Source of the DNA: Phoronis australis
Taxonomy: Eukaryota; Animalia; Phoronida
DNA: 64,000 nucleotides
Direction: 5' to 3'
Assembly (NCBI GenBank): GCA_002633005.1
Contig: NMRA01000172.1
Coordinates: 489,303-553,302 of the forward strand
Positions within the stretch are counted from its first letter, which is position 1; every line of letters begins with the position of its first letter. A program made the translations under genes and the position numbers. The notes under the pieces were generated by a model. That model saw nothing but the letters and a program-made list of their open reading frames with translations, ran no database searches and had not been told where the DNA came from. This document shows positions 4,601-48,949 of this stretch, piece by piece.

Positions 4601-6484
4601 AACAGCACAAAACAAAAGTAGAATAGAACAGATTCGCACGGTAAAGTCAACGCAAAACCAAGTGGCGGGAAACGCTTGCCTCCTAAAACGTCACTTCCGG
4701 AGTAGCGGACGAGTAATTAATAAAATTACGATAAGCTGTAATTAAGTGGAAAATATGTCTAGGATAACCAACCAACCTTATTTTAGCTCAAAATGACATG
4801 GAAAAGGTTGCCTTCGCCTTTAAAGATTAGACCCAGGGCCCTGAAATGTGTCAATTGTCCTTTGTTACAACTTGTGCACTTACACACCTTAGTCATTCGG
4901 CCGAAACTTGATAAGCTCTTTTGCCAACTTTTGATTTCAAAAGTTGTGATAGAAGCAAACAACACACATCACAATCACCTAGAAATATTATTGACGTTTT
5001 AAGTTGGCATTGTTCTCTTTAAGACTTGCCTTGTGATGATGAGGTAGTTAAATAGGTCATGGATCATTCAGTAGCTCCACTCTCAATGGTTAATATCTGG
5101 CTAATATGGTTTACACTAATCAATGAAAAGCAAGGTCACATGTATAGAGCAACTTCCTGCATGCACGTTTCCAGCCCAGTTTCTTGGATTTGCTATCTAA
5201 CTTTATATTGAACTTCTAGCCAAGAACTGATATTGCGTATAGTAGCTGACAGTAAGAGTATTTTGGAAAGGTGTAAAAAAAGCCTGCAGTGAAATATAAC
5301 AAACACGTTTATTCAAGAACTCGATGCATTTGTAAAGGTTTTATATCGAAATTTGATGATTTATTGGTGTAAAACGACGCATTCAAGCGATAAGTTGACA
5401 CACTAGCAAGCGTGTTGTGAACGGCTGAACAGACCGCGTTCGAACCGATTACGTCATTGGTTAATTTCAACACCTCGAGTCCGTCTGCCGTCAGGTGTAA
5501 GGTAAAACAACTGAACTTGCTGTAATCGAGTGGAACTACTCGATCTAAATTGATACATTATAGGTTGTTTTTGGGTGGCATTCTCCTTTGATATAATACA
5601 TCATGTCTTGGAAAGACTTAAGATTTGAACCAAATCTTATTAAAAACGAATCGTGTGCTTACAGTGTAGGTCCACATAAACTCATTGAACACTCTACAGC
5701 AATGCCTTTTAGGGAGGCCACTAAAATAATTTGGGCAAGGCTGCCTGCATTCTAACATGATTGACATTAAGCCTAACATTGGTAATCATGACCTTGAAAA
5801 CGTCTGGTTACCATGGTAACGATACCCAATTCAGCTTAGTACACAAGATTCAATTCAATCTTGCCTGCTTTCTAACGTGAGTTTGCTGTCAAACCTGGAA
5901 TTTCTGGTTTCAACTGGCAAAATAACTGGTCACCATGACAACGATGCGTATTCCAGCTTGGCGACCCCTTAGTTTCAAGGGGGGGCCTGACTATCAGTAC
6001 TTTGATCATGGTTTCCTGCTTCTAACGTGAGTTTGCCATCAAGCATAAAATTACTGATTTTGGCCTGCTGACTAACTGGGCGTGATTAACTGATATATCA
6101 CCTGCATTGTTTTTTAAAGATGTAACCTACCGATCGAGCAGTTGAGTCCACATTAAGCAGCTCCAGTTCATCTAACTGGTCGTCGTCAAAAGTCACATAC
6201 GGTACGATGTTTGTGGTTTTCCGAATTTTGCACAATTCTGAAACTAATTTCTTAAAATCGGCAAATTTGATTCCTTTTCCTTTGATAACCTTTTTCCTGA
6301 CACATTTTAGAAAAACCGCATCAGTAGAATTGGCGCGTCCGTCTTTTGCCGTATTCGTGTTCAAACATCTTGTAGAACCTGATTGAAATGTATCTTTGAA
6401 TTCCACATCTAGCTCAAACGAATCTTTGTCGTCATCTCCGCAGTCCCACCCGGTTACGGCAGAAACCCAACCGACGGTCGACAT
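1150..6484 (-). CDS. Ankyrin-repeat protein, divergent from the RNase L-like gene; 3' end uncertain
   Basis: Exon 6131-6484 (ATG, 118 codons, donor gtaggt). Two 99-nt phase-0 ankyrin exons: 2845-2943 (DGMTSLIFSCCINDAKYVRKMVNSGANINHKYN) and 1319-1417 (ACTTALMEAAHSADPDVVKTLISAGAKKDLQNE). Tentative terminal exon 1150-1239 (NVAPREKIRSLRKCLSS...stop), or the gene may continue beyond the window. Confidence 0.6.
1579..1639 (+). repeat. (CA)n microsatellite
   Basis: Direct reading. Confidence 0.95.
3441..5722 (+). repeat. Near-identical ~895-bp duplication (3441-4334 versus 4823-5722) next to the N at 4335
   Basis: Both copies run from aagattagaccc to ttagggaggccact, with scattered SNPs and a small indel. 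Confidence 0.9.
4336..4823 (-). mobile_element. Terminal fragment of a Kolobok-like DNA transposon, truncated by the gap
   Basis: Begins on the minus strand TTAA|AGGCGAAGG at 4823-4811. Absent from the duplicate block, which has TTGA at 3438-3441. Encodes an acidic N-terminus ending GYMFEPEY. Confidence 0.45.
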
Positions 6485-6773
6485 TATAAGCAATAGCTCT
6501 ATAAAATTCAAATATGACTAGCAAAAATTTAAACCGCTGATTATCAAACACTTTATGCTCTGAAAAACGTTGCGTTCGCAGTGAGATCTAAGTTATTATT
6601 TCTTGCATTTATTGCGTCACATATACAAATGTTTGACCGCACAAACAAGACTAAACGATCATCATAGTTAAGAACGCGCACAGAGTGGCATTGTGCCGGA
6701 AAACGTGAAGTTTGAGATATTTATTTTGCACTATATCGTGACCAAAATTTTGTCGAGATTTACTCAGGTTGCG
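6485..6773. promoter_or_regulatory. Putative bidirectional promoter between the two ankyrin genes
   Basis: The predicted divergent start codons are only ~290 bp apart; inferred from geometry alone. Confidence 0.45.
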
Positions 6774-9700
6774 ATGGCATTGGAGAAGAATCCATTGCTA
6801 TGCAAACATGGAATCTCTTTGATCAGCTGCGGATCGTGTTCAACCAGAGAGAATATGCTTCATTTCTTGAGAAAAGGTGAACAACGTCAGGGTGAAATGA
6901 ACAGTGTACGACTGCTGGACCAAGTTCTTCAAGACTCCTCTCTTTCAGTCATGTGTAAAGATGAACTGGTAAAACTTAGATATTTTTGCTGTCGTGAATT
7001 ACATATGACATAGTGCATACAAACACTCATTTTTGCACAACTCAGGTGCTGACGGCAAAAGTGATGCAACCGAGTGACTTTTAAAACATGAGCCACACCA
7101 CCGATAAGTACGTTTTGAACAACCATAAGCAGCACCAGCAAATCCCCTGTTTAGTCCCATTTTATTGATGAAAACGCAGTACAGGAATACTTAGCCTTCA
7201 TACAGCTAGCTGGTTGGCTAACAGTAAAGTTCCCTTCTGACATGATCATAGATCGCCACCTGCTGCATCACATTGGTGAGCTACAAATAACATAGGTCGA
7301 GAAAATAAAACTTTAGTAACACAGGTGCCAGAGATGCACATTTCCGTTAAATCCAACTGGTTACTGCACTGTACACATACATATATAAGATGAAGGTAGT
7401 CGTCTTTGAACTTCAACAAAAACAATAATGCGCGTCAAAACACAGTCACGATTGTCAAACAAAGCTATTTCTTTCACTTGAATCCGCCTCGACTTTGAAT
7501 TTACACACATTTTCCGAGTTTTATAAGTTTGACTAGTTTTCAGACTACGCTGGTTTGGCTGCCTTCAGTTCTATATAATTCTGTACAGCATACGAAAATT
7601 ACCGAGCGCTCTTTGGACGAAGTCTGTCGAGAAAAATGAGAACACGCAAGACCATGCAAAATCGCGCGAGTGTTTCGCGAGTATACTCACTGGAGTAACC
7701 AAATAAAATGACGGCTACTGAAGTGATTAGTTGGTGAGACTGCAGTGTTGAATTATGGGATAGCATGCATGAATTATTAGATGTAACTCGCTGTTTCAGT
7801 TAAATGAAATTATCTCGCCGCAACTGTATTGTTTTCGTATTGTGTCTCGATGAAGATTTCATCAGAGATAATTACTTCAGTGAGTCGCAATAGCTTCATT
7901 TGACAACTAGGAGTGAGAATTACTTCTCTTTTCACGCGAGCGTGTTTGTTGAAGTTTGAAGATATTTACCTGTATTTCAAATGTAGCGTAGTACTGGTGG
8001 TAGTATAGAAGTGGATCGTTAGGATTTCGATCAAGTGTGGCTTGTTAATAGGACGACATTAAGAACTTGTTGTTTTCGCTGTCGAGAAAATCGAGAGAGA
8101 TATTCATTTCCTTCGCTTTAGAGACCACCCTTGTTGCAACTTGATGTCTCGTGTATACACTAACTGTGTATAAGTTGCTCACCATACAGGTCGCAGATAT
8201 ACGAAAGAAAAATCCTCTATCAGCACCGTTCACCAAGAACACCTTCGCATTCACCTAACGAACTTTGCAGATACATTTATATAGTGTATGTGTCATATGT
8301 TATCTTCGTTGTTACCCGTTGCGGACAGATTTGTAATGCTGCATTTGACAGCCTCCATGCTTACTTCCAGTTCGGGATGCCAGCGCTGTGCCTCGTGTCG
8401 TCTATCGGTCACGAAGAGAGTGTGAAAAAACTACTTCACGCGGGAGCTGACGTCAATTGCGTTGTACCCACGGTACTTTGAATTATACATTTTGAAAACT
8501 CCTAAATCGGCAAGCATGATTATTGCTTTCTGGAAGTTTGACGGATGAGACCAAAGACCACTCACCTCGAACCACAGAATTTCTGTTGTAAGAGAATGAG
8601 AAAGTGATTGGTGCGCAAATTGTACATGTAAATAAAACACAGTGAAATTATAGTGAATCTGCAAAAGTTGTCGTTTATAATGTGCCGCTCAGGTACTGCA
8701 TCTGGAATGTAGTAACTGACAGAACTAGTAATGGTTGAAATCGCCAAAATAAGTTTTGCACCATTCTATAAGCGTGTAGGACGATTCAAGAGTCTGTTTC
8801 ACTATAATGTCGCAACTTTAAGACGTTTTTACACATTATCTAAAAACCAAAATTTATGACTGGCCCTAGTTGCATGAAAATTATTCGCTGGATAGCAGCA
8901 ATGACGTCATTACAACCCGTCTCTTGGGTATTGCTGAACACTGCTTCTGACGTCATGCAGCAATTCAACTTATCCATCATTACTTCTGAAGCTACATGCA
9001 ACCTGAGCCCTGTATCGTTAATTGCCATTTAGACATTTGTTAACGAAACGTCCTAAAGCTTCTAAATTCTATTGAAACATGCATCAGGTCTTCAAGCTGC
9101 TGCCCTCAGAGGCCACTCGTATTATTACGATCTTAATGTCTTGCGTCATAACTTAAAATTAAGGGGGTGCGGATTTTTGAATTTTGATATTTTGTACTTT
9201 GTCTTTGGCCTACAAAATTTGTATTTCACGGAATTAGGTTTGCCGGCACCTCTGGTAACAAAATAAAGTTTACACGGGTCACTAAAAAATCAACTTTTAT
9301 TTAAAGCAACGATTGAAAATTTTTGACAACGGGTTAAATTCCTTGTTTTGTGATACTGTTATTTTTAACGGGCTCACTTATATTCCTAGTTTACCGATAT
9401 TTTGCGTCAGCGAAGGAATAAAAGTATTTTTTCTCGATTCTGACACAAACGACTAAAAAAGGTTTCTAAAGATTACGACTATAAAGGTCGTAAGTTTTTT
9501 AGGTATACGACTCCCAGATCACCAAATGAAAACCCAAGTCACACTTAGCGAGTACATTTACATCTAAGGTGGGATTGATCAGTTGCGGCATTTTTACATT
9601 TTAGGACAAGAACTCTCCGTTGATTTTGGCGACACAGGGAAGGCATATTGAACTTATCAAGCTACTGATTACAGCCGGAGCTAACCTAGCGCATTGCAAC

Positions 9701-12700
9701 AACGTGCGTATGAAGTCATTTCCATGTAGCGGGAGACGTAGAGAATTTCATTGGAGATTGACTAGAGCGTGACTCTCAACCATCTCTTTCATTTTGTTGT
9801 CATCGGCACTCTTAACAGAAGCGTTGACCGCAGATTCAGAATAGTTACTTGACATGCTGTAATATCAAGACAATTGCGAAATATCAAGAAGAGATTAATT
9901 CAAACACTGAAACTATCAAACTCAAGTTATAAACGTTGCGTCCGTATCTCACGGACATCAACTCAGGGGCGAATCCAGAATTTTGAGTTAAGGGGGGGCA
10001 GGACAGAGTATTGGCCAGGATTTTGTCTGCCAGACTTTGGCACCCCCGAACTGCCAAATGGAATCTGGCAGAATTCTAGGTGGGCGATGGCCCCCTTGGC
10101 CCCCCTCTAAATCTGCCACTATGTATTGACCTCCAAATGAAGTTCTGGTGCGGTAGATCAGCGGTGGTTCTGTCCCATCTCAGACCACCATCTTATTGAG
10201 AGCTGGTTTCTCCACGCGTTCATGTAGTGTCCCCTTAACCTCTTCACTAAAACAGTAGTCTCCCCAATCCGAGATAACGACATCCTTGGTTTCAAAATCG
10301 TGTCTTGCTCTGTTGAGATGACTACGTGCAGTCGTATGTGGTCCCATAATTGTGACCATGAATTGCTGACACACAATCACGTTCAAGTACTGTTTCGTAT
10401 CAGCAACATATCTGTCTGAACACTGAGACGCCGTGCGCTACACACCATATACTCCATGAGACTTGATCCCCTTCGGAGCTCAATGCAAGCCCAAATTGTC
10501 GCAACAACCCAAATTGTCACAACTTCGAATTGCGACAATTTGGGTCAGCGCTGCCCATGATGAATTCACCAGTTGGGTTTTTCTTGTAATACAAACTGTT
10601 TAAATGTCCTCTACTCACACCGAAGAACCGAAATAATAACTGTCACCGAGGAGTCCATCAAGAGACCCAAGTCAACTATCTTCAACAGAAAGCATGCCTA
10701 ACAACATTAGAAATACCAAACCTGGAAAACCCCATCTAGAGCCTTTCGTCAAGATATGGAATACCTACCGTTATGAAATTTGTCTTACACTCTTCCTTCT
10801 ATAGTACATGTGATTTCAGTGCCATATACGACAGCGGTATTTAGTCTAAAGCTGGTAATGTAACTAAGGAGCCATAAAGAGAGAGACCATTTCTGTGCTA
10901 CGGTAGCACGGTGCATGATATTTCAACTTCCTCACATATGGGACAGGAACATCGCCGATTATATACAAAATAACTTGATTTTTTGTGAATTTATGTAGAA
11001 CGCAACCCTGTCAAGAACGACTGTAGATAATGAGCACATTAACCTGCGGATGTGCTTCGTTTGTTGAAATTTATGTTACACCCGAGTATCCAAGCAGACG
11101 TGACGCGACTGAGATGAGTGTACATGTAAAAAATGAATCAATTACTGTATTGCATTTATTTCTTCGGTTAAGTAACGTTTCATTGACTGGCGTACGTTAG
11201 CATTTTGTTACTTTCTTGATGTTGTTGAGAAAGTGTGATTTCTCGTTTACAGGAGGGCAACAATGCTTTCATGGTGGCTGTGTCGACTGGAGATGCACAT
11301 CCCGTCAACCTCCTTTGGCAGTATAGGAGTAACTTTAATATTAACCAAGAGAACGTGGTATGGTACAGTGTGCGCTATTAGACTTGTCAAGCGATATGCA
11401 CAAACGAAACCCTTCGTTAACATTGTGCACCTGCTGGTGTATATTATTCAGCAACACTCATGATATTTTATGTCCTAGTAAACATATAGACTTAATTCAC
11501 GCCGACAGGAGGCGCGTTTCAAAACGAGGCTTGCTACGATAGCTCAGTTGACTTATTGGCATAGCTGTATGCTGCGCTGCTTGAACGGCTGTTTTACAAT
11601 TCCTAAGGACGTTGAGATTCGGAAGCGTTGGGTAGTTGACATACGCCGCGACGAAGGAAAATATGTGCGTGTAAAATTTTTAAATGTTTTCGAAAAGTTA
11701 GATCATATTTTAATTGTCGTATCTCGGTTGCCGAGCATCACGACAACGACCGGAGAATTTCCAGCCAGCCAGAAACTACGGATTGAAACATGATGCATTT
11801 TTCTTTCAAAGAAGGACAGGGCTCTCAATCCCTCGATTTTGGGGACAACCATTTCCCTAATTCCCTCTCAAAAATATTGAAAACAATCATGTGAAATTCC
11901 TCCCACGAGGCCTAAAAATTCCCCTAGTGATTGAAAAGTTCTCTCCGGAGTTCAAATCACCTGTAACCATACAGGTGACAATTTGAAAGAGCACAAAATG
12001 CTACTTCAGACAGAGCCTATGAGAGCTTGCAACAGGACGGGGGTGCTATATGGTGATCGGGAGGTAGATTTCCTCCTCACAAGGCGAAAAAGTTCCCCTC
12101 TCAGAAGTCACAGACACTTTTTCATCTCATTTCGATGACCGAGGCCCATGAAGAAACATAATAACCATGCTTGCTCTGTCCAGTTATCTGAAATTGAGTC
12201 ACTAAAACGAGGTTATGCTTTAGATGAACGATTTAGGTGCTTTAATTTTAAAATTCAACTTCGCCCAGATTGATATTTGAAACCTAACACATGAAATAGA
12301 CGTTCATGTAAGAATTATTAAAACCAAGAAAGCAGAATCGATGATCAAATAATTTTTATTTTCAATTACGAGCCTGGTTTTTTGTTTTGATAAAAATATA
12401 TTTAATAACATCAATTATTCTTTCAGGTCAATGACAAATCAACTGTTAGTCCCGGTAGTCCCCACCTCACCAGGCCCTAGGCTGTAGTTGATGTTAATAT
12501 TCTTTATCAACAAATTAAACCAAATGTGTCTAATCGCACATGAAAGCAAAATGCGATGAGCCACCACTGTCGAATAGTCAAATCGTCAACAATACGAGCA
12601 GATGACTTGGTTCGCGTAGAAAGCATTTTTATCAACAAATTTACAAGAAAAAGCTTAACCCTGCATTCAGCATGATACCTAATCCGTAACATTGCGATCA

Positions 12701-15700
12701 CCTCAATTTGGTCATGTTTACTTTTCATGCTTCGAACCTTGTTTTCCGAAAAAACTTATACCCTTTCGTCAGACAATTCTTTGGTACATTGACTTGTTCT
12801 CTATTTTTCTACGTCTCTGCGGTTAATTATCGACACATTTTAAAGATTTAATACCAAGCTTGAACTCGAAAGACCGGCCATTTAACTCACGCAATGTCAA
12901 CTTCTGCTTTGTTTATCGTAGTAAGCCTCGCTTTGGATTTTAATGTCCGCCGAGTGAATTAGGTCTATAGTGTGCCATCATTATCAAGACTACTTTAACG
13001 TTCACAAATGCAGGCCTGGCGTGCGTTCAGTAGCGCTTGGACCTAAGCTAGTACCCAAGCTAAAACCTAGCCAAAGTCACGTGCTTTCATTTGAAATACA
13101 CGGCAATATCTCACGTAATCTCGCGAAGTCTTACTTTTTAGCGAGATTCTAGCGTTACTGGCTATCCAGAGAATACTAGACTCATTTCCGCAATGGTACT
13201 TTTCCTCTCAAATGGCTGGTATTTTTATAGCTTTATGTTCCTCCTATTCACATGTGCGGATTTCAGTCACTGGCAGGTCATTTTCAACCTGGAGAATAAT
13301 TGGTCGTATGACTTTTGTTCGCACATACAAAGAACGTTCACCTCCGAGGGTAATTTGAGGCAAGAGAAATACCCGAATTGTTCCGAATGGCTACAGTATT
13401 TTTTCCATGTCTGGCTCATCCCGAACCTTCTATGGCGTTTTCGTTACTTCAAATTATCGAGGAGACGCTGTGAATTGAGTTCCAGACTCCCCGTTTGGGA
13501 GACCGGGGTTTGAATCCTGGCTTTACTGGCTGACAGTCGAGCATTGCACAGGGGGGTTTCCTAATCCTCTGAGCCCACTCTTACTATTGAATGTATGCAA
13601 GGGAAAGCATGAGAACCTGGATATAATGGCAACGCGATTTTTGGGATTGTGTTAATATTAAATTTATCAAGCCTCGGAAATGTTACATATTTGTGCATGT
13701 GCGAACCAAAACTAGAGAAAAGATTTGGTCAAAATAAAAATCACGCCAAACCACCTAGGTTTGAAAAGAAATGTGCGACGTCATTCTCATTCCGTTGTCC
13801 ACCTGCTGATGTAGTCTAATCTTATTTCACGTTTTGTACTTTTATAACAGAGATGTTTCGGAGCATTTTTTTCATTTTGACAATCGCATGAGTGCTGTCA
13901 CTCTGATTGAAGCTCTCACATGTGGAGATAGGGAATATTACCGTGGGATAATCGGAGGCTACGAAAATACCCGATGTATTCGAGATGGGTCTGGCAAGAT
14001 CAACAAGTCTCATGCACATTACAAGCTAGCTTGGCAGTCAGAAGTGTAGTTCGTCACGGAACTGACCGTTTGGCCCTCTGCGTTTCATCTTTACAGAAAG
14101 GCTATACGGCTATTCATCTGGCAGCTGAGCGACAATGGGAGAGTTGCGTGAACATGCTGATATGTGGTGGAGCTGATAAACAGTGGCAAACATACGTAGG
14201 TACCATCGCCGACCTCACTCTACAATTCATAATATCCACTCAGTTCGAGTAAATATCCAATTTAAGTTGACTAAATACTAGACTCGGAAAAGCATCTACT
14301 TGCAATAAATGATGTAATCCGAGTAGCCGTCCGTAGACCATGTTTTTGCGGGTAAATGAAGACCTGTGAAAAGGCCGCGTTTCGTGAGTATGCTCGGCTG
14401 CTTACTAGCCTATCCTAGCAAAATTTTAGCCACTGATGTGCTTTGTTGGTCAGGTTAAAACGTCGAATTACGGTGTTGAATTCATTAACCGAGGGATATA
14501 ATTCACTGTTTCCCTTCCACGAGCGAAGAGTTTTTGTCGCACGTGCAAACTAACTATTGTGCCTATGGAACTCATCTCCACTGAGCTGCAGTGAAAATGG
14601 TTTCGACTAGAAATAGCTGGTGAAAGGGTTTGAGTTCAGAGAAAAACTTTAAGAGCCAGCCATCCTAGATATTCCCCAGTTCAATGTGTAGAAAAAACAA
14701 CCTTTTCAAGCCTAAACGTTATACCAAAGTGTAACTTCAAAGGGTGATCATCGAACATGAACATCCAATTTGCTATGCCTTTTACATTATTTGGCCCCGC
14801 TACATGAATCAGGGACAGACTTTGACAGAAAACTTGGTGGTACAGTAAAAGCATGCTAATAATTAAGTACAAATACTCTGTCGCATATCCAAATTTTTTT
14901 GTATGAAGATGTACCCGTATCGTTGTAGGACGGATCCACTGCATTAATTATAGCAACCAAAAAAGGTGACAAAAAGACAGTGGAGCGCCTCCTGGCGGCG
15001 TCTGCAAGTGTTGACATAGAGGATAACGTAAGTGTCTTTGTATAACAGAACGTATTTCATCACACATGTACGTGGGTAAACGCACAAACGATGATTTCTT
15101 TTCCAATTATGATAAGATTATGTTGTGTTAATTATTGCAAAAATGTATTTCAGGAGAGTGCAACCGCTCTGTGTTATGCCATAAGAGATAAAAAGTGCGA
15201 CCTTGTCGATTTGTTGATGAAAAAATTATTTTTCTCCAAAGACGACAAGGAAAGTTACGTGAGAGTAAGTGTCGTTGCTTTATTTTTATTTTTCAGTCCG
15301 TTTTAGATTTAATAACATTACACTGTTTTTAGTCAATGTGGAGCGTGTTTGTTCAATAAATTAGTAAACAATAACCTTGCATATTTGACAGAGACGCATT
15401 GACCTCTTGAGGACGAAGACAGTGTCCAACGGCACAATCAGTAAAGAAGATTTCTTCGATTCCATACTTATCCCCGTTATTCAAGAGCTGTGCAAACATC
15501 AAGAATGTCGAGATATCCTGTTTCGGATACGTGCTATGTTCCAGCTGATACCGTTCCTAGACACGTATCTCACCAACGAAGAGGTTGCGCAAAAGACCTT
15601 CATCACCTTATGCATGTTGATGTACGTGTACTCGAGCACGCCCGATTCCAGATTTGTAGACCAGTTTGTCAGTGCCAAAGGACACGAACTAGTCCTAAAA

Positions 15701-18700
15701 AGTCTTTATTTCTACGACGCCAGCAACAGTTACGATCCCAAGATAATTTTCACTGCCTTTATGCCAATCATCAGCATCTATGCTACACTAGAAGGTCGAG
15801 AATGGCTGAAGAAGAATTATTACAAGCTGTCCCAATACTCCACGATTTTCGAAGCCGGGTGTGACATCTCATCCTTTCTGGACTGTTGCCGCGGTAAATT
15901 CATGGGAACATGGCAGAGATTTAAGTGGCACTTCACCAAAACTTCGCAAGAACAGGCTGAGCTTGTCTGTGCAGAGTTATTAGAGAATGAAGAAAGGGAA
16001 AAGGCAAGGGAGCGCGCGAAAAAAGAAAAACGGCGGGAAAAGAGAAAGAATCGAAAAATTCAACAACGTGCAGAGCGTGAATATGCTGAAAAACTTGTAG
16101 ACGGAGATGATTCATTGTTCGATGACGTCAACAATTCTCCCGATTCTCAAAATTGTAGTTACACGCCGAAAGGAAGCGTCATAGCAGACTTTCTCAGTGG
16201 CGTTCAGCAGAAAGTGAAAGGTCTGCTAGGGAAAATACCAGCGTCTCCACCGCGTGATCAGAGGGAGAATGTAGACGACATACAGAAGGTTCAAGAACAG
16301 CATGCAAAGAAGAAACGAAGGAAGAAGAACAAACCGAAGAGAAGCGAAGAGGATGAAGTTTTGTTGAACCACTGTGCAATAAATCCTGTATTCGACAGGA
16401 TACAGTATTCGCCAAAGGTGATAAAGTCACGTACAACTAAAGTACCAAACCTTCCCCGAGTAGAAGACATTATAGAGCCTTGTGAAAATGTTAGTGGTGA
16501 TGCGCCTGAGGTACTAGGGGCTATGGCTACGCCGGAGAGGGTTGGTATCAATTGTAGCAAATTGAGCTTGCCTTGCCTTGTGGCCGGACCAGAACATAAG
16601 GTCACGAAAGATTTACTTGAATGTAATCTCACAAACAGCGGTCTTGTGCCGTTAGACACGTCGTCACCAGTGAAGTCGTACGAACAATATGGTTCAGTAA
16701 ATATGAACGAAAACGCAAGAGGATACCGTAGCCAGGCTCCTCCCAGAGTTAACATATCGCTAGATGACGTAACGGAAGATAGTATGGCTGGACTGTCGCC
16801 CATAGGAACACCCAGGGAGGTAGACACAAACGGCAGTCTAACCAGCAGCTCTATAACTCCTGAGAAGTACGGCATGAGTCCTCGACCAAAACATGGCAAA
16901 CATATCGTTCGTTTTAAGGAAATGAAATGCGATGGTCCACCATCTTCCTACGCGTTTTGTGCAGTAGGCGAGTCTCGTGTGGGCAGTATGTCACCCAGAG
17001 GTCGAACAGCTACTTGGGCAGAAATAACGAAGAAAGATGCTGTCAAAACTAGACCATGGAGTGCAACAAATATTAGGTATGGCTCACATGCTTCAAAACT
17101 TTCACAACCTGTATTCTTCCAACCAAACGACAATTTTCCTAGATCAAAGAAGTCAAAAAGACCGCCGCGATTAAGGCCTTCCCAAGACACGAAGTTAGAC
17201 ATTATTTCTCCTACGAAAGACAGTCGAATCGTTAAGTCAACAAATGCCGTCGAAGGAAAACCAGCCATTCAAAAAGTGAACCTGCGTGACATGAAGATAC
17301 CACTTTCTAGTTTCATACCAGATCTTTCGAGACTTAACAATGAGACAGGTGCAGGTGCTGTTGAAGATCGAGCTACAGAAACTGACAACGAACGAAGAAA
17401 AGATCGAGAGAATAAGTCATACGAACAGCAACGTGAAAAGTCGGTAGAAGTGAGTTGCTATCGCATGAAACGAGATGCGCAGAATACTACAATCGAACAT
17501 GTAGTCGACGTTGACGCAATGGCAGAGGACCCAGACTATGTCCGCATGCAGATGGAGGCACTGGATAACTTCAGCAAAGATTATAAAAACCTTAACTTCG
17601 TTCAAGATGTTAGCGGCTGGCTGTCGGAAACGTCTGACGGTGACGTCAGCAGCGAGAATGGTGTAGAGAAGAAAGAAGGCAGCGTTTCTTCAGACGCAGA
17701 CATGGAAGTTCAACGGATACTTCAGGAAGACGTCATCGTGCACGAAAATAACCCCATTATCTCACCAGTGACTAAGAGTTACCATAATAAATGCACTGCT
17801 CCTCCCGTTTGCTTCTATGATTTTGGCATAAAGACATCTCACGAATTTTACGAGTCGGTTACCGGTGACAGAAAGCTTTTCCGCGACACAAATCTTCTCA
17901 CTGACATTCGGGTGGAAAACATTCCTGTGGCACCAGACGTGGAATTTGCTCGGTTGACACCAGATCCTGATGATGGGTTTTCCAATTTGGATAACACGGA
18001 GTACATATACTATCCCGGAATGGATCACAAAATGCTGCAGATTAGAGGACTCTTCCAGAATACGGCCAACAATCGCTTTCACAAACTGATACAAATGCAG
18101 TTTGAAGCTGCTAACGAGCGCAAAGTTATTGGCGAGATGTCATCGATGGGCAGGTTCTACCAGTCGCGCTTCAGTCCTAAACAATTTGTTCCACCTCCTG
18201 CGGGAAGTCTTTGGTCCAACTGTGGTAATCGGCAGGTGGCAGTAGGTGTCCCAGCGAGCAACGCAGTGGATTGTCGCGACAATGACTCGTCCATAACGTG
18301 GGTTCCTAAAAGTCAGCGTTGGAGATCAATCTTCAAGGAGTTGACGGCTCTGTCGATTGAAACACACACTAAAGTTGGTCCCATATTGTTTCACGCCCAC
18401 AATCAACGCTTCGGTCTAACCAGCAGGTATCGCCAGTAAGAATGATTACCTTATCTAGATTTGAAAGTACCACGAACCTGATATGAGTTGAGTTTCGTAG
18501 ACGTAAGAATCTTGCGAAGAAAGCAAGTGTAATCACGTGCTTTGCTTGTGGTACGTGACAAAATCTCACGATGTTTTGCACGATATATTGCGTTTTCACG
18601 AGGTTCTTGTGACTACGGAACGCACGCTTAACCTATGTCAAACACTGCTTTTTGATTTACACCACTTACCATTGTATAATTGCCCCTTACTCAAAGTAAA

Positions 18701-21700
18701 AATGAATTGTAGTTCGCCATTACTCAAGTCCAACTTAAAAAAGCATAGTTTGCACCCCATTTTACCATAGAGGTCTCTGCTAACAGTCTAAGCGTGTGCA
18801 TTACCGTAACAGTACCACGGAGCTTTCGTTGAGATCTCAGTCGTAGACAACCCTAAGTCATTCAGATCAACCAAATATGTATTGAGCGAATGGCGGAGAT
18901 CGGAAACAAGCAAGGAACTGCGTCACTAATTACCCAATGAGTGATCGTAAACTCCGAGTGCTTTTAACAGACCCAAAGAAGAATTACCTCAGAGAGCTCA
19001 GTAACAATAAAATAAATTAAAGTTGAACTTGTAGGTTTGTTCCTTTTCTGTGGTTGCTTGCCAAAGTAGTTAGAAGCACATCTTGTAGCGACGATGTGAA
19101 TATGAAGAAGGCTGGAAATTATCGAATGTTTATAAAAACGGGTTATGTGGCGAAATTGATCCACTGAAACTAATTGAAGCGTGTCCAGTTAATATTTCAC
19201 GTGGTGCTGGGGATTAACACTGCGCACATAGCCCACGAGGTACGTCATTGATGCAAAAGGTCACCTGTTTTCATATTTTTGTTTCATTTCACATTTACAA
19301 ATTGTCAGTGAATACAACTGCACTTTCTTTAGAGTAGATTATGTTAAAATAGCATTGTCGTTTAGTTCTTGTTATGCATTAGCACAGTTAGGAGCATGCA
19401 AATACATCTTTAAATATAATTTGCGCTCTTACCGAAAGAGGCCTCGGGAGATTATCGAGAATAGAGTTTAATACGGTGTCTTGACCTTGAGAGTCATTTA
19501 TGAGCCGAGCACGAATTGAAACGAGCTATCAATTCTTGCCGAGCCCTACATGTACAATCGCTTCCAACCTAAGTATGGGACGAATGAGACCGTTGCATAA
19601 CCGAAAAAGGTGTTGATCATCAATTATTTGGTAGCTTTTGACAGTAGCTAAGTGTGTTCGTGGAAGCTCAAATAATACGAATCTTCAGTTACTGTTGAAT
19701 CCGTCCGTTTTCACATACACTTTGAATGCTTAACATCTCATTATTTCTCTACTTTTCATCTGAAGCAATCACCGTGTTCTCGTCGGATGAGTCATGTTAA
19801 AAGCTTGTTATCTGTTGCTCTGACTGATATTTTTCATGTCAGCCAAATTATGTCTTTCGAAATTCTTGTCTTTCCAGCAACCATTCCTCAGCTTCCTCTT
19901 ATCTCGGTATATTGGAGGACGGTACAGAAATCTCAGTGCGGCGCATGAGTCTGGATGACTACGCTCATTTAAAGAAAAACTTACCTACCATGCTCTATCC
20001 AGCAGTCAGACACGAGTCGTTGGCCAAGTTTCTGGTATATATATTTACTCTTGATGCTGTTCCAGAAGTTAAACACTGTAGTTTTTTGTGGACCTAGATT
20101 CAGACTATGGCTAAAAGTACATGAGAACACGAAATATCAACAATCGACTAATGTGTCCAGGAAAAGGCTCAAAAACCTTTTTACTTTGCGAATAACATTT
20201 TTAAAGTGAAGCACCTTTCCGAAACGATAAAATGTAGGCCAAAACAGCATAGTTAGTTATGGTCTTGTGTTTTCTTTGTTAAAAAATTGCACAAAAGCAC
20301 GCCAGCAAGAGTAAGCAAGGCTTGAAACACCACGGTTTGCCAAGCGAGTAAAAGCAAATCATTTTGGTAGTCTAGGGTGGCTTTTCTTTTCTGAAAAATG
20401 AAGCAACAAAAGAAAAACCGACATACGGACTCAATTTTCAAAAACTAAATACGGGTCAGAGCCTACTGTGTTGTTGGCCTTATTACTACTATATCTGTTA
20501 TTTTTGCTCGAGAACGTCTCATTGATCGAAATGCTCTATGTGTCATTTCGATGTTTCAGAGTTTGAGACACCCACCCTTGCCTTAATTACATGAACAATT
20601 AATGTTTTAGTTTACAATTGGCAGAAGCAATGTTGGTCGAATAATAGTGGCACGGCAGATAATTACAAAAATCACAAGAATCATTCACGTTGTCATGCAA
20701 CCAACAAAATTGGTCTGTGATTCCACAAAAATGGTGCACCTGGTCCAGCCATGCAGCTCAAGCACACCCGGTGTACTGCAAAAGACACTAGGCCACCTTA
20801 CTGCCTACTTTGCTCTAAATGCACATTCAAAATATAGGCCATTTCCGGTAGCAATCTGGCGTGTTCTTACACAGTTTGGTTGATACAAAAGTACATTAAT
20901 TTTGTATGCATAATCCTCAATTCTAAGTGTCACACAATATTCTGCACCTTGATAGCATGTTTTTCAAATTTTACAAAAGGCATTTAGATACTGAGGACAG
21001 TAGTGCACAATGAAGCTTGAGTGTTTCTGACTACATCTGGCACCATTAATTGAGTAAAATGGACTGCTGTGTTCAAGCTCCGCCGGTATCATAAAAGCGG
21101 CTGAAGATATCAATGAATTACACGACTGTTATGTAACTGCTGTGCTAGCTTCAGGGAAGGTGCTGCTACTTTGGGACATGCAAAGAAATGGGAGATGTCT
21201 CTCAGTCAGAATCTATATTGTGATGTCGGTGTTTGGAAAGACCATAAGAAGGAAGCTGCATGAGAATGGGTTAGGCAGAGCAAGCACTGCTATTTTATAA
21301 CGGCCAAGCACACAGCAGGAGTTGCTCAGAGGTCTGTCCACCACTGCCAGCATGGGCGATTAGATCGAATTCCAACTTCTACGGCGACTACTATAACATC
21401 TTTCCTAGGAACAAGCATTCCTTTGTTCCGACACCCTGGTCAGTAGAATGAGGACATGAACAATGCCAGTTGACAGGCAACAACACGAAGACAGTTCAAA
21501 GCGTCCCGCCTCTTTTACGAATGTCAGACCTGTACACTTCTATGAAGAAAGTCCACTTGCGCTTCAACTCCTGAACTTTTCCTGGTTTAAAATATTTCCA
21601 ACAAATGTGCACATATACACAAGTATTGAAAACGCCACACTTACAAGTAAGCCTGGACGTCTGTAATTTTTCAGCATGCAACAGAAGACGATCATTATGG

Positions 21701-24700
21701 ATACCTGGCTATCGAACTGTGTGAATACAATCTCGAAGAGTACATACAACACATGAGGTCGCGTAACGAGTACGATTTCCGGATTGCGAAGCGACTGGTG
21801 TGGCAGTTCTTGAAAGCTTTACAGTACTTGCATGAAACTTGCCTCGTAGCTCAAAGAAATTTAAAGGTAAGCATGTCAAGAAGGCCAGGACAGCCACTCT
21901 GCACGATTTTATTTGAAACCACTATGGCGTTTACAAGCCTCATAAGCAAGTGTTTTCTTACGTGAGCTGTATGTTGTTTGCTTCAATATGCTTACTTATT
22001 AAGTTAATATTGGACTGCACTATCTAGCCTCAGAACATACTACTCGACACTCTGAACAAGGTGCGACTGACCGACTACAACATTAGCCGCATGACGGAGA
22101 GCGGGCAGACGATTCTTTACGACAAGGGTGTGGGTGAGTCTATCTTAGATATTACACGAAGAAATAGTTTGAATTATTGGAACTAAATCAAGACTCGGTT
22201 GTTAATTATTGTCAAAGCCTTGAAGGATTCTTGGCCTTGATACTCCTTAATAATTGTAGAGAATGTCGTGCACGAATCGGCTTCCAGTCCTCATAGCTTT
22301 TGAAACAAAATATAGGCGTCAGAAAATTTTTGTCAGAAATCGCGAATGCTGAAAAGTGTGCTATCATTAACAAAAATTTTGCACTCAGATAAATTTGATT
22401 GACCACAAATAACTGTCAAACAATTTTTACAATATAATTTTGACCTTTTCCGGCAAGTACAAATACTATTCAAACTCATGACGCGTTCAGATGTCAAGTT
22501 TAAAAAAAGATCGATACGTCGTCTGACCATAAAGCCGATCAGATGCTCACAATTACAGTTCAGAAATGTCTCGTATGCGGCGAGTAATTAGCGTAACATC
22601 ATGTACAAAATGGCAATTACTTGAGCGCCACCATGGTTGAACAGAAACTAGCCGCTAATCTGGTCAAAGGGATGTACGGCTCTCACGGTAAGGCAGTAAA
22701 TCAGGTTGGACGATTAGAAGGCAGCTCAGCCATCTGACGCGTTCACATGTGATTTTTTTCAGACGACAGATAAATCTCTGATACGGTTTGTTGCATGCTG
22801 CTGCCTGACCGGACGGCATGTGAAAGCCTTGTACGTGTACGTAGATGACCAGTACAAACATAAATAAAAACCTTTGATTCGTTTGATCTCAAGTTGGTTG
22901 CAGTTGACCTGTTGAACGCGATCTCATTCACAAAACTCATCGATTTCATGACAGGCTGTAATTGCTGGCGACCAAAAGAGTGCGTGACAAGTGGCCAAGC
23001 TTGGACGGGGACGGCATCCGTAGTAAACTACACGACAAAGTCAGATATCCAGGTAACGGACTTAACTCATGAAAGTAAATCAGACATACATGTAAAGAGC
23101 TTACATACATGTACAACTCGAGAACAACTCTACGTCGAGAAACAACCAAAAATTAATACGATGTTATATCAGGCACTGATACATTCCCCATTAAATCCAC
23201 GAGAAAGGGAAAATAAGTGGTTCCAACAAAACCAGGCAGTTGTGCTTTACTAACCTGGGATGATGTTTGACGGAGTGATGCCCGTGAACGCAAATAATTC
23301 AATTTGGAATGAAATAAGTACCCTCCATTACTGCGATAAGACGCCGCATGGCAGATATATAGTTAAAAAATCAACTCGGACTCGTGAAGACAGAAAGGGT
23401 ACTTTACTCATAGATTGATCAAAGTAGGTTTTTGGATTTACACTATACGGTTTGAATTCGTGAAATACCCATCCACGCCAGGTTGCCGGAATGCTTGTGC
23501 ACTACATTTTGACGGGAGGAGTGCACCCATACGGTGACAACACGTTCGACATAGAGCTGAACATTGCGCGTGGTTGGCCACGATGGCGAAGAATAAATGA
23601 AGAGGCCAACGACCTCATACGGTGGATGTTGTCAAATGAAGAGAAAGAGCGACCCAACATCACACAGACTTTAAGGTACTCATGCATCTATGAAAAACTG
23701 TACATGTAAATAAACATACATCTAGTTTTTTTCGACCATAACTTGTTTTTGTGAAAAAGAGCAATTTAGAAATTAGAGGACCATCTTTTGATCGATAGTG
23801 TACAGCTGCCTTACTTGACGTCATCGAGATTAGCTTTGGTTAAACTCATTAACTACTGCTTACAATTTGAGTTGTAATTCATTGAACAAAGCAATCAATT
23901 ACAATCTGTTACTGGCCTTTGCAGACACCCTTTTTTCTGGCCAGAGCTCAAACGAATGGACTTCTTACATACAGTGGGAAAAGAAATCCTGAGCGAATTT
24001 CAGTACGGGTAGGTAACTTGTCCAATGCATCTGGAATATTAATTGAATTAATTAGACCTTCGGTAGTACGAAACTCAGACGAAAGTTATGGCATTTTGAT
24101 TTTCTCGTACCTGATTTTATTCATAGAGTATGTCCGTTCAGGTGGCAAAATGGTTCACCAAACTTACAGACGTTCAAACCGCAGACGGCTCTGACTAAAG
24201 CACTCTTCAAATTATTGTCGGGCCAGTAAAAATAGACCTTTGCCGGAAGATCTAGATTTAATAGAAAAACACGCGTGTAACTAATTGTTGAAAGACGTTT
24301 GGCATACAAAGCATTCAAAAATCTGTCACGGCTCTTTGCAAAGAAGAGAATATTTATGATCGAAATATGTTGAGAATATATACACAAAACGTGCCGAGAG
24401 TAGCGTACATGAAATAATATCCCACGAGACATTATTCCCCGTATCGACCTCGACTTTCGGTCTCGGTTCGTACGCGGAATAAGGCCGAGTGGGATATTAC
24501 TTCTTGAACGCCAATCGAGGTACGTTTTGTATTTATCCCATGCGCTTCGAATTCCTAAGTTTCTTACATTTTTTTCGGCAGATTTTTCAAATACTTCACC
24601 CAGCCTGTTCAAATGGCGGATCACATCCTAATATGTATGTACTTGCGCGTTAGGCTGCAAGTTTTCTCTGGTAAAAGAAACAGTTTTAAATGTAACGATT

Positions 24701-27700
24701 TATTTCTTGAAAAGAGGTAAGAAAGATGAAAACAACGGCAACTTTGCAGTGAATGTGTAACATCTCTTGGAGCTGGTTAAAAAACAAAATTTGATATTTT
24801 AGTTTCCTAGGAATCGGCGACTGAGTTGCAGACGATATAATATTCAGCAATTGAAAACTGAGACATAAGTGTCTCATAATTAACAGTTTTGTTCCAGATT
24901 TTACGTTTAGGGCCTGGTTGCATGTCGAGTGTTATTTACACTGTTGCAACTGTATTACTTTAAACTATGTTCGGAAAGTTTGAGGATCGAACCGGCTGAA
25001 GACGTCGAGTCGACATTGACCTACCTTTTGAACTTTCCATGTCAGAGGTCACTGTTGAAGTGGTGTGGGAGGTGAATACGGAAAACTTTATTACATGGCC
25101 GTATTTCCCTCGACAGATTCAACGCGTATGGGATAAATCTCTGTATTTTGACGATTAGTCCGAACTTGTCTTTTAGCCCCGCTACTAACAGCGTCATCAG
25201 TGAGAGGCTGAACAATGTCTCCTTCCAGGCGGTGAGCAGAGACTGGGTGAGTTGAGTGAGAGGGTCTTGGGAACATGGGTGTCGGCTGAGTTTGTGTAGT
25301 GTTTAGTTTTGACCTAAGTGGGAATTGATGCGTGAGTCTATGTTGCCAGTTACTAGCTTATCAAGTTATATGCAAAGACGTGGAGGAACCCAACGACTAT
25401 GTCCAACAGCTTTGGGTACAGTATTTTCATCACTCATAAGGGAGAGTTGAAATATTGAAAAAGGGGCGGGTTCGTCCTGCTTTTAGTGTTTACACTGACA
25501 GAGTTAAAAAAACATTTTCTAATAACTTTCATACTCTAGATGTCGCAAATCGACGAACTGTTGCTGGAAGAGATGCGCACGCACCGTAACTACAAAAACA
25601 ACGTGGCCGATTTCCTGCGATTCATTGTCAACTGCCAGACACAATACAAAAACCTGTAAGTCGTTCGCCTCCATTACACGCAGTTATTTGCTAATTGATT
25701 CGTATGCTTTTTTGTACGTCATTTGTCATCTAATTCATTTTTGTATATAAATCAACGTCAGGAGTACTTTGTACCCCTATATAGTTGTCAACATTGAGTT
25801 CTGGAAGTAAAAAATTGCCACGCTCATCTGATCTTGAATTATTGCCGAATAAGCCGGTTTAATTTATTGTACTATTTAGAATAAGGGTGGACCCCTTTCC
25901 TCAACAACAGAATAATGAACTAATGTAGTCAAACAATAATTAAATACAGGTAACAAAGCAACAATCAAACAGGTTAAGAATTTAGATAAAAAATGACGAA
26001 GGATTATGAAAATAGACTAAGGGACGTTAAGTTAAATAAAGAAACGATGCTATTAATAGTGAAAGTATTTACGGTATTGAAAAATGGCATACTTAAGACA
26101 GAAATAGGTGTAAAAATGGGCAAATAAATTGCAGTCTCTTTTTAATATTAAATTTGAAAGCATTAATTCAATCGGACCGTTTAATTTCTGGGCGAAGGGA
26201 ATTCCATATTGCAGCACTGGCATTAAATATAAGATCTCTTGCCGGTCTCGGTTTTAATCATTTTAAATGAAACATTACCAGCAACGGATAAACGTGTAGA
26301 GTTTACAGCTTGACTGCTACTAAATTTGCGTCTGAGATATCTGTTTATGCCACAGGCAGAGAATTTTTTTTTTATTTTCATCAATCTAAGCTTGGAGCAC
26401 AAGTCGTCGACCCAGGTGCCCCTAATTCTAGTACCCATGATAGCCCTGGTGGCTCTATTTTGGATTACCTGGAATTTTGCTTACAAGTGTGTCGCTGGTG
26501 TGTCCCCAAACCGGTAAACAATAATATGGGGCTGAATAATAGAATGGTAGAGTATCTTAAGACTGCTGAGATAAAGAAATTTACCTCGTGGACGTTTTAA
26601 AGTACGCCGATTTTCTTTGACATTTTATTTGTGATGTAATCTATGTGCATAGGTTGGGATCTAAAATAAGGCCCTAGCACTGAAACTTGTCGACACTCTC
26701 AATATGGAACCGTTGATATAAAGACACAATTTCTGTCGTTTAAATTACTAGTGGGTTCCCAACTGCATAGCCTTGGTGCCACAAAGGTTAAGAATAAGTC
26801 TATTTTGAACCAGCCAGTCATGGATAAGGGCAAGCTCATCGTTGAGAGAAGTTTTAAGTTCATTATTGATCCAGCTGTGGACATAATTACAGTGTCATCG
26901 CTGTTGTGGAGGACAGGGGAGATCGTAAACAAAAATAGTGAATAATTGTGTTCCCAGAATGGAACCCTCGAGGAGGTACGCCTTGATAACTGTTGAGTAG
27001 TCGGAGAGAATATCACCGTATTTGGTAGCGTGTTTGCAGTCGTATACGTAGTTTTTAAACCAAAGGAGTTCGTTATCGTTAACTCCATTGGACTGTAGTT
27101 TCCTTAAAAGGATACCATGGTCCACAGTGTCAAAGGCTTTCTTAAGGTCAACAAAACAGCACCTGTAAGCCTCCCCTGGTCCATATTATGGAAGATAAAG
27201 TCAGTAGCGTAAATTTTTGTAGTCAGTGTAGAATGCAGGGAGTGGAAACCGGACTGGTGTCGATAGAAGGGAATTTTCCTCCACGAATTAGTAAACTTGC
27301 TTTTGGACACACCTTTCAAGAATTTTTGGACGTTGCTTGGAAGACCGATATTGGCCATTATTTTTGCAACTGGACTTGTCAGTTGTCACCGTCTTCAAAA
27401 ACAGGAGTAAAGATCGCCATCTTCCAATCACTGTGGCCGTGTCTAAACTCAAATTTATGAAGGGTCTCGGCTATTAGCTGAGAGACCAGTTTCAGTACAG
27501 TTTGGCATAAATGCTTATCGGTGTCACCGGTAACTCACGTCACAGACAATTTGTTCATGTGCCATCTTTAAATCTGCAATTTAGGGTTGGCCAACCCACT
27601 TTAACTATGTTCAAAGCGCTTTCTTGGGTGGCTGATAGTTTCGTTGTTTTGTTGTTACCGGAACTAGAATCTTATTGTGTTAGGGAATATCATGAGAATG

Positions 27701-28095
27701 GACTAAATCGATTTTCATTTTTAGCCAGCTAAATAGCCAAACGTAGTTATAGAAGTGTATGCGGAACAGTGGAACCTCGTAGTTCAGAAAAAATAGAGTT
27801 TTAACTTTGAAATGTGTGTGTGGGTATCCTACATTGCCTGATGACTAACACCTGCCAGAATATTCTCGACCTCGCCACCTAGTATCCCTTGCTCGACGTC
27901 TCATCTTCTGGCAGACGAAAGACAGGAGAAACTTTCCACCTTAGTATATTTTTCAGATCCCCCACGAGTAAATCTATACTCGGCGAAGATCGGCTGTATT
28001 TCCTGCGGAGTTTTCCCGCGCTTTTCATGTCAGTCTACCGCGTCGTCAAGGGAAGTGAGTGGGCAATGAAAATGAGCTTCAGCAAGTTTTTCTAA
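6774..28095 (+). CDS. RNase L/IRE1-like multidomain protein (ankyrin repeats, helical/coiled-coil/disordered insert, pseudokinase, KEN domain), ~1636 aa, 16 coding exons
   Basis: Phase-consistent GT-AG exons: 6774-6968, 8371-8472, 11253-11357, 14097-14195, 14929-15027, 15154-15264, 15392-18435 (alternative donor 18426), 19878-20034, 21675-21866, 22028-22133, 22955-23052, 23482-23675, 23925-24008, 25177-25246, 25540-25655, 27957-28095; total 4911 nt, ending TAA. Five phase-0 ankyrin exons (e.g. KGYTAIHLAAERQWESCVNMLICGGAD). Pre-kinase motif WVPKSQRW (cf. RNase L WKPQSSHW). Kinase motifs YLGILEDGTEISVRR, LAIELCEYNLEEYI, QRNLKPQNILL, KSDIQVAGMLVHYILTGGVHPYG, HPFFW. KEN motifs YKNNVADFLRFIVN and YFLRSFPALFMSVY. 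The first exon is the least certain. Confidence 0.88.
8371..15264 (+). CDS. Ankyrin-repeat exons (five repeats, one per exon) of the RNase L-like gene
   Basis: Phase-0 exons of 99-111 nt: FGMPALCLVSSIGHEESVKKLLHAGADVN, EGNNAFMVAVSTGDAHPVNLLWQY, KGYTAIHLAAERQWESCVNMLICGGAD, DGSTALIIATKKGDKKTVERLLAASASVD, ESATALCYAIRDKKCDLVDLLM. Confidence 0.9.
9964..10120. mobile_element. Short non-autonomous element with GC-rich imperfect TIRs
   Basis: caggggcgaatccaga ... ctaaatctgccact with G and C runs. A similar right end (tagatctgccactg) occurs near 35017-35030. Confidence 0.5.
10130..10400 (-). mobile_element. Penelope-like element, C-terminal fragment of the GIY-YIG endonuclease
   Basis: SHLNRARHDFETKDVVISDWGDYCFSEEVKGTLHERVEKPALNK resembles the PLE endonuclease tail (HL..H.F...DV.ILD.E..WF.RGVKEAI.....KP.LN). 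Confidence 0.6.
11548..11670 (+). mobile_element. Degenerate THAP zinc-finger fragment, DNA-transposon derived
   Basis: SCMLRCLNG.CFTIPKDVEIRKRWVVDIRRDEG matches the THAP pattern C..C...F.FP.D...R..W...IRR. No intact transposase follows. Confidence 0.55.
13016..13160. mobile_element. MITE-like element, same family as 33724-33867 in opposite orientation
   Basis: Reverse-complement similarity over ~145 bp, including ggcaatatctcacgtaatctc. Confidence 0.7.
15392..18435 (+). CDS. Giant 3.0-kb internal exon of the RNase L-like gene
   Basis: Matches the 1010-aa ORF at 15407-18439. Acceptor ttgacag ends at 15391; donor gtaaga starts at 18436. In frame with the flanking ankyrin and kinase exons. Confidence 0.88.
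19878..24008 (+). CDS. Pseudokinase-domain exons (RNase L/IRE1 family)
   Basis: Kinase subdomains are recognisable in order across six exons. VAVK reads ISVR, HRD reads QRN, DFG reads DYN, APE reads PKE; the domain ends RHPFFW. Confidence 0.88.
25177..28095 (+). CDS. KEN (kinase-extension nuclease) domain exons
   Basis: Spliced sequence SERLNNVSFQAVSRDW|MSQIDELLLEEMRTHRNYKNNVADFLRFIVNCQTQYKNL|SPTSKSILGEDRLYFLRSFPALFMSVYRVVKGSEW aligns by eye to the RNase L/IRE1 RNase domain. Confidence 0.85.
26100..27510 (-). mobile_element. Decayed LINE RT fragment (CR1/L2-like) in the last intron of the RNase L-like gene
   Basis: Minus-strand DLKKAFDTVDHGILLRKL, HQSGF, a degenerate GVP..GSILG and SDDT (from YADDT); many frameshifts. 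Confidence 0.85.

Positions 28096-36644: not shown

Positions 36645-48949
<12,305 letters not shown>

Follow-up and report, generated by a model that had tools for sequence, protein, structure and literature searches.

The closest described systems to the gene analyzed here are RNase L and IRE1, in both of which a kinase fold is followed by a KEN domain. RNase L (PDB 4OAU, 4O1O) is cytosolic and runs in the order ankyrin repeats, W-x-x-x-S-x-x-W linker, pseudokinase and KEN domain; in the accessible parts of PMC4730318 this is its general layout, and in those of PMC5927464 it has nine ankyrin repeats and a 2',5'-oligoadenylate (2-5A) pocket that uses repeats 2, 4 and 9 and the kinase N-lobe together. 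IRE1 (ERN1/2, yeast Ire1) has a luminal domain and a membrane helix. As far as the accessible text of each source goes, RNase L occurs in jawed vertebrates only and several non-RNase L proteins carry ankyrins, probably as independent gains (Chu et al. 2023, PMC10400998); Hu et al. 2018 (PMC6307210) give no RNase L for oyster, limpet, Lingula or acorn worm; OAS and RNase L were absent from an Aplysia survey (PMC9334734); and in Nematostella an RNase L homologue is named among poly(I:C)-induced genes (PMC8476169). The gene described here lies on the plus strand of a 64,000-nucleotide stretch of Phoronis australis contig NMRA01000172.1 (positions 489,303 to 553,302; hereafter the window, with positions counted from its first letter). 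An initial annotation, made from the letters alone, read it as a cytosolic RNase L-family member in a probable invertebrate, possibly belonging to an uncharacterised nucleotide-second-messenger immune pathway. The RNase L-like domain order and the invertebrate-type family both held, and alignment shows that neither of the two enzyme domains has its catalytic residues; the protein works, at most, in the manner of the RNase L chassis.

RNA data consisted of three raw-read runs and one contig set carrying the same species label as the source DNA (X1-X4). In X1 and X2, 15 of the 16 introns were crossed by stranded read joints, all GT..AG; the last intron was followed through continuing reads, 86 and 92 of which exit at 25655 and go on with the letters of 27957 onward. 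Joined in this way the coding exons, of which there are 17 rather than the 16 first proposed, give 5001 nt and 1666 aa with the sole stop at the end, which bears out the annotated start (ATG 6774), stop (ending at 28095) and single frame through all domains; an in-frame stop lies upstream at 6669. Read joints lead from the ankyrin exons into exon 8 and from there to the kinase and KEN exons, and these are therefore one gene and one transcript. Exon coverage was zero in X3 and X4, so expression varies by sample. Exon 8 has two in-frame donors 9 bases apart, the major at 18426 and the minor at 18435 (67 vs 19 reads in X1, 66 vs 18 in X2), and use of the latter adds three residues just past the pre-kinase segment, where the glycine-rich loop would start. 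The features of the gene are as follows (all plus strand; E, expectation value):

6774..6968, exon 1, aa 1-65, N-terminal cap, of which the final ~20 aa can be aligned to the orthologues
8371..8472, exon 2, ankyrin repeat 1; Pfam Ank E 6e-5, read joints
9605..9703, exon 3, ankyrin repeat 2; Pfam Ank E 1.5e-5, read joints
11253..11357, exon 4, ankyrin repeat 3; Pfam Ank E 0.06 (under cut-off), read joints, alignment
14097..14195, exon 5, ankyrin repeat 4; Pfam Ank E 7.6e-6, read joints
14929..15027, exon 6, ankyrin repeat 5; Pfam Ank E 3.9e-6, read joints
15154..15264, exon 7, ankyrin repeat 6, then the stretch joining it to the helical domain; read joints, orthologue alignment
15392..18426, exon 8 (3035 nt), coding for aa 271-1282 with the armadillo-like domain, the coiled coil, the long linker and the pre-kinase motif
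15392..15964, within exon 8, predicted armadillo-type helical solenoid, aa ~271-461; AlphaFold2 predicted local distance difference test (pLDDT) 84.8
15965..16087, within exon 8, long helix or basic coiled coil, with ELLENEERE followed by a K/R-rich part; mollusc orthologues conserve it
18299..18322, within exon 8, pre-kinase motif WVPKSQRW (aa 1240-1247); by way of shark RNase L it aligns with WKPQSSHW in the human protein
19878-20034, 21675-21866, 22028-22133, 22955-23052 and 23482-23675, exons 9-13, pseudokinase; read joints, Pfam, alignment
23925-24008, 25177-25246, 25540-25655 and 27957-28095, exons 14-17, KEN domain; read joints, Pfam, alignment

Pfam was scanned with 16 single-exon pieces, one by one. 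Ank matched five exons (four above the curated cut-off), to which orthologue alignment adds a sixth repeat in exon 7, giving aa 66-260 with one repeat per exon. Pkinase matched three exons and Ribonuc_2-5A two (E 6e-4 each), all five pieces falling below the whole-protein cut-off; in orthologues Ribonuc_2-5A stands above it, at 49 and 61 bits. The C-terminus of the protein is the end of the KEN domain. The highest 19-residue hydropathy in the 1666 aa was 1.29, by which a membrane helix is not indicated, and no luminal domain appeared among the exon Pfam matches; on this point the first reading stands. IRE1 thus differs from this protein, which is without signal peptide, luminal domain, membrane helix, HRD, DFG and glycine loop.

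Where the nine ankyrins of RNase L abut the kinase N-lobe, the six found here are separated from the kinase by ~980 aa comprising an armadillo-like domain, a coiled coil and a ~730-aa linker, none of which RNase L has. The predicted solenoid is conserved across the family described below. Its best fold matches were armadillo proteins (VIA Z 13.0-13.6; Armc8 13.4, beta-catenin 13.0), a level common for helical repeats, and Foldseek with the same model returned nothing at E<=0.001. The low-complexity linker after the coiled coil is likely disordered, judging from its composition and its failure to align with relatives. Queried with exon 8 alone, the homologue search returned no match from 7984 scored candidates, the linker having diverged too far. 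In the PDB, sequence searches with the KEN exon alone and with the pre-kinase segment alone gave chance matches, none of them to RNase L, and a search of the ESM Atlas gave generic IRE1-like clusters and nothing else. For the kinase-KEN region of Solemya, AlphaFold2 gave a poor model (pLDDT 61, predicted template modelling score 0.39), and the fold search made with it, in which IRE1 came first and RNase L had rank 36, was set aside.

The initial annotation had likened the pre-kinase segment to WKPQSSHW of RNase L. That string is indeed present in human RNase L (PDB chain 4oau_C), but a W-x-x-x-S-x-x-W linker does not mark RNase L, since lungfish, teleost and Lingula kinase-KEN proteins that are not RNase L have it as well.

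Residues of the two enzyme domains were then compared. The kinase fold has ISVR in place of VAVK, QRN for HRD and DYN for DFG, and no glycine-rich loop. KEN residues were mapped by alignment to IRE1, and to human RNase L via the shark protein: Y1600 and N1613 are retained, while the catalytic Arg is V1612 (25627) and the catalytic His Q1617 (25642), equivalent to R667 and H672 of RNase L, so that the KEN R-x4-6-H motif is absent. The equivalents of W632, Y655, D661 and N668 are kept, and the beta-3 lysine K392 corresponds to R1303. In the accessible parts of the respective papers, the catalytic tetrad of IRE1 is Y892, R905, N906 and H910 (PMC9472280), KEN activity requires the Arg and His and HEPN domains without the motif are proposed to be RNA binders (PMC3710099), H672N gives an inactive RNase L (PMC5648034), and K391R, at the beta-3 lysine of mouse RNase L, is dimerisation-defective (PMC5927464).

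The ankyrin repeats were placed on those of RNase L in four registers. In the best of these, the residues opposite W60, K89, F126, E131, R155, N65 and Q68 (the last two of which we take to be further 2-5A contacts) are N102, N131, Y170, L175, T199, L107 and Q110; one of the seven is thus identical, and at most one is in any of the four. The first five positions are 2-5A contacts of RNase L in the accessible text of PMC5927464.

It is very improbable that the protein is RNase L proper, acting as a 2-5A-activated nuclease downstream of an invertebrate OAS. That view would account for the shared order of ankyrin, pseudokinase and KEN domains without a membrane helix and for the common W-x-P-x-S-x-x-W linker, it is compatible with the tree tests given below, and OAS genes are reported from oyster, limpet, Lingula and acorn worm in the accessible text of PMC6307210. 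Set against it are the loss of both nuclease residues, the dimer lysine (replaced by Arg, the change that blocks dimerisation in the mouse) and 6 of 7 2-5A contacts; the distance of ~980 aa between the six ankyrins and the kinase, when the pocket needs repeats 2, 4 and 9 with the N-lobe; and the family ankyrin profile, which gives shark RNase L 71 bits as compared with 74-83 bits for unrelated ankyrin proteins. The defining residues of RNase L having been examined and found missing, the protein is not classed as RNase L, and a 2-5A-type effector role is likewise unsupported.

Homologues were collected by a query with exon 13, which led to a snail protein, and with the kinase-KEN region of the latter, which led to 66 proteins; the profile search returned the best 150 representatives, and names were obtained for 30 of the matches. 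By sequence, the gene belongs to an old, protostome-wide and apparently undescribed family in which six ankyrins are followed by an armadillo-like domain, a basic coiled coil and a long linker, and these by a degenerate kinase and a KEN domain. Members include proteins of Patella, Lottia, Haliotis, Mytilus, Saccostrea, Biomphalaria (LOC106072425) and the annelid Owenia, and among arthropods those of a scorpion, tick, stick insect, sawfly and planthopper. There was no deuterostome among the named members, and amphioxus and hemichordate matches group elsewhere. Database labels for the family are uncharacterised, hypothetical or a misleading best match. A literature search found no description of the family or of its linker motif, subscription papers being mostly beyond its reach, and the accessible text of PMC10400998 does not describe it; clades C1-C4, D or E of that paper may nevertheless already contain members, and the family may be among the independent-gain proteins mentioned there.

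Mollusc proteins match at both ends, most at 31-36% identity and in collinear alignment (for Patella, 35% over aa 44-519 and 34% over aa 1244-1666), and the mollusc KEN domain is nearly invariant, which argues for a retained, non-catalytic job; an R-x-Y-K segment and the Asn are common to this protein and the molluscs. Residues were counted in 45 rows with the armadillo domain (44 homologues and this protein), 38 of them with the KEN motif complete. The R-N-x3-H nuclease motif is found in 0 of these 38, as against 99 of 124 other kinase-KEN rows; taken singly, R is present in 4 of the 38, N in 27 and H in 22. Of 44 family rows 1 has the kinase catalytic Asp, and of 45 rows 26 have Lys at the beta-3 site. 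N and H are gone in insects, and R, N and H are all gone in ticks.

A nuclease gated by a ligand or partner and using non-canonical chemistry (Tyr, Asn and, in molluscs, His, or another arrangement), of which the Phoronis copy would be a weakly active example, is an unlikely but not negligible alternative. Y1600 and N1613 are retained here, His and Asn persist in the family at the frequencies given, the mollusc KEN domain is strongly conserved, and altered-motif HEPN nucleases are discussed in the accessible text of PMC3710099. However, R and H are both gone in this protein, and with the insect and tick losses no catalytic set is common to the family.

A kinase-KEN tree was built from 48 of 215 proteins and this one (49 rows), hand-picked for full kinase-KEN coverage and spread. 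The family forms an 18-row clade at 100/98 in the bootstrap tree (LG+G4) and the same clade in the other trees (99 in a quick mixture tree); within it the mollusc-annelid and the arthropod groups are two branches and this protein makes up a third. The sole RNase L row, shark XP_078074076.1 (P0195), is a true RNase L, matching the human protein at E 3e-134, and shows 27% identity to the Phoronis protein over 427 kinase-KEN columns; it falls outside the family on a long branch, within an unresolved set of cytosolic kinase-KEN lineages, and IRE1 also lies outside. In the approximately unbiased (AU) test a clade of this protein with IRE1 was rejected (p 6e-5), in line with the earlier view that the gene is not IRE1, while neither this protein with RNase L (p 0.073) nor the family with RNase L (p 0.36) was rejected, the latter two with a single, long-branched RNase L row and all three, like the bootstrap tree, under LG+G4, which is more prone to long-branch effects. 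The kinase and KEN phylogeny called for at the outset places the gene outside IRE1 and, in the maximum-likelihood tree, in a separate family, although by the AU values a sister position to RNase L is statistically compatible with the data.

That the locus is a divergent IRE1, or two adjacent genes wrongly joined, is extremely improbable. IRE1 structures are the best PDB matches by profile score (151-164 bits for the kinase-KEN profile vs 112 bits for RNase L), and read joints number 5-39 in the ankyrin half vs 66-129 in the kinase half, an unevenness of depth that the putative internal start in exon 8 explains. Against this, the protein has neither membrane helix nor luminal domain, the IRE1 clade is rejected, every intron is supported by reads, and orthologues hold both ends in one protein.

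More speculatively, the ankyrin-pseudokinase-KEN chassis could be older than jawed vertebrates. The family would then be a sister group of RNase L among invertebrates, going back to an ancestor of the bilaterians in which ankyrins were already joined to kinase-KEN, and could trap RNA rather than cut it in response to a different small messenger or a protein signal, with an ankyrin-less isoform from an internal promoter as regulator. We consider this improbable but worth stating; if true, it would change the current picture, in which ankyrins were acquired shortly before the jawed vertebrates arose and independently elsewhere.

Other cytosolic kinase-KEN proteins labelled IRE1-like (P0083, P0022, P0023, P0099, P0104, P0101 and P0214; from lungfish, teleosts, amphioxus, Lingula and hemichordates) have a W..S.RW linker in most cases, and most retain HRD, DFG and R-N-x3-H and look active from these residues. 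Those of lungfish and some teleosts resemble the family in having N-terminal ankyrins, a helical region and a lysine run; no homology was detectable between their helical region and the armadillo domain (hhalign probability 0.3%). Proteins of this lungfish and teleost type (P0083, P0023, P0089, P0090), with ankyrins, an active-looking kinase and an intact KEN domain, form a clade of their own (100/99), a second vertebrate ankyrin-kinase-KEN lineage beside RNase L. Hemichordate P0101 and P0214 adjoin the family with weak support (83/88), and the KEN motif is altered in both; P0101 is instead fused to a GT4-conflict glycosyltransferase domain.

Taken together, what has been shown is a single transcript, its order of domains, the loss of the residues and membership of the family, and each functional step set out here is conjectural. 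The account we favour, by a modest lead over even chances, is that the protein is a cytosolic double pseudoenzyme, a scaffold that would bind RNA without cutting it. The ankyrin and armadillo domains might bind a protein partner or sensor input, and the pseudokinase-KEN unit might hold RNA via its retained Tyr, Asn and basic residues; alternatively, it might tune active kinase-KEN paralogues by association, as pseudoenzymes do. A W-A-[DE]-[VI] motif in the linker (here TWAEITK, 17012..17032, plus strand, aa 811-817) could dock a conserved partner. The corresponding pattern [WY]A[DESAQN][VILA][VALT] occurs in 15 of 32 family proteins vs 0.87 expected from shuffles, the pattern having been written after 4 of its 15 matches were already known.

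Several points weigh against the scaffold account. That circumstance of the motif count is one, and the motif occurs in no insect or tick row. RNA binding is deduced from the retained residues alone. Molluscs retain the His (in the 22 of 38 family rows counted above), and according to the accessible text of PMC3710099 some HEPN families perhaps cut with an altered motif, for which reasons the family is perhaps not uniformly dead. It is also conceivable, though rather unlikely, that the ankyrin-armadillo adaptor and pseudokinase are the working part and the KEN domain is a structural cap making no contact with RNA. In arthropods the residues on the KEN surface vary freely, and Ribonuc_2-5A has ceased to match several insect members, as such a cap would allow; the R-x-Y-K segment and Asn shared with molluscs speak for a more specific role, as does the dominant RNA of the locus, which retains kinase-KEN and drops the ankyrin-armadillo module.

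This dominant RNA is seen in the read depth of exon 8. Both expressing runs show a roughly fivefold step in sense depth at 16.1-16.3 kb, the place at which an antisense RNA starts, with depth going from ~15-22 to 54-111 over 16075-16600 (X1 19.5 to 84 to 111; X2 14.5 to 53.5 to 95). Two further features are placed here:

16075..16341, plus strand, inferred internal start of the dominant sense RNA; depth step, with TGACGTCA at 16123
15274..16097, minus strand, RNA antisense to the 5' part of exon 8; pile-ups of molecule ends at 16097 (X1) and 16082 (X2)

The pattern points to an internal divergent promoter in exon 8, and most RNA appears to start inside this exon, without the ankyrins. The longest ATG-initiated open reading frame of the antisense RNA is 48 aa, and no spliced-in leader was seen among the loose read ends listed. 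The first in-frame ATG past the internal start is at 16523 (M648), from which the predicted short form would retain linker, pseudokinase and KEN domain and drop the ankyrin-armadillo module. As part of the scaffold account, the internal promoter would yield a more abundant form lacking that module, either uncoupled or competing. Here too there are points on the other side: depth climbs on to 185 by 17.4 kb (X1), 3' bias may add part of the rise, and several out-of-frame ATGs precede M648, so that the short protein remains putative. Eight TGACGTCA palindromes (CRE/ATF-type) occur in the window vs 0.98 expected, all below 24 kb and six inside this gene; with 8 such sites in the first 24 kb, the copy at 16123 is weak support for a promoter. 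An annotated snail isoform without ankyrins begins at the WA-type linker motif, and may be a parallel case or an incomplete gene model.

The family is thus old, widely retained and apparently unstudied, with the RNase L layout and both enzyme sites off. Such proteins could pass for an invertebrate RNase L in surveys of immune genes, and the residue tests say not to count them. They offer a natural test for the origin of RNase L and for the role of a catalytically dead KEN domain, and knock-downs are feasible in several animals that have a member, namely oyster, mussel, snail, tick and beetle; the inferred internal promoter that drops the sensor half is a concrete regulatory handle.

Around this gene the window holds several others. 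A second gene lies head to head with it on the minus strand (2848-6478), ~300 bases from ATG 6774, with a 117-aa first exon (6128-6478, no Pfam match) and an ankyrin exon (2848-2946, Ank E 0.008); minus-strand RNA depth is ~18-20 in the 6300-6966 bin (X1, X2), with none in X3. Two C-type lectin genes, apparently intronless and with a coiled neck, converge on the 3' end of the ankyrin-pseudokinase-KEN gene (28880-29731 and 32230-33009, both on the minus strand); over 651 bases the two are 83% alike. They are followed by exons of VPS35 (41452-47696, plus strand) and of myo-inositol oxygenase (MIOX; 52978-53214, minus strand). The CpG observed/expected ratio is 0.84-1.03 over this gene and the lectins (1-36000) vs 0.39-0.55 over VPS35 and MIOX (36001-60000), which suggests the mosaic methylation pattern of invertebrates. 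Broken remnants of reverse transcriptase of the long interspersed nuclear element type lie at 26898-27185 (minus strand, inside the last intron of the gene) and 61639-61962 (plus strand). Local duplications of ~97.5% identity at 190-863/855-1523 (joined at an N) and 3437-4334/4819-5722 are possibly haplotype or assembly duplicates.

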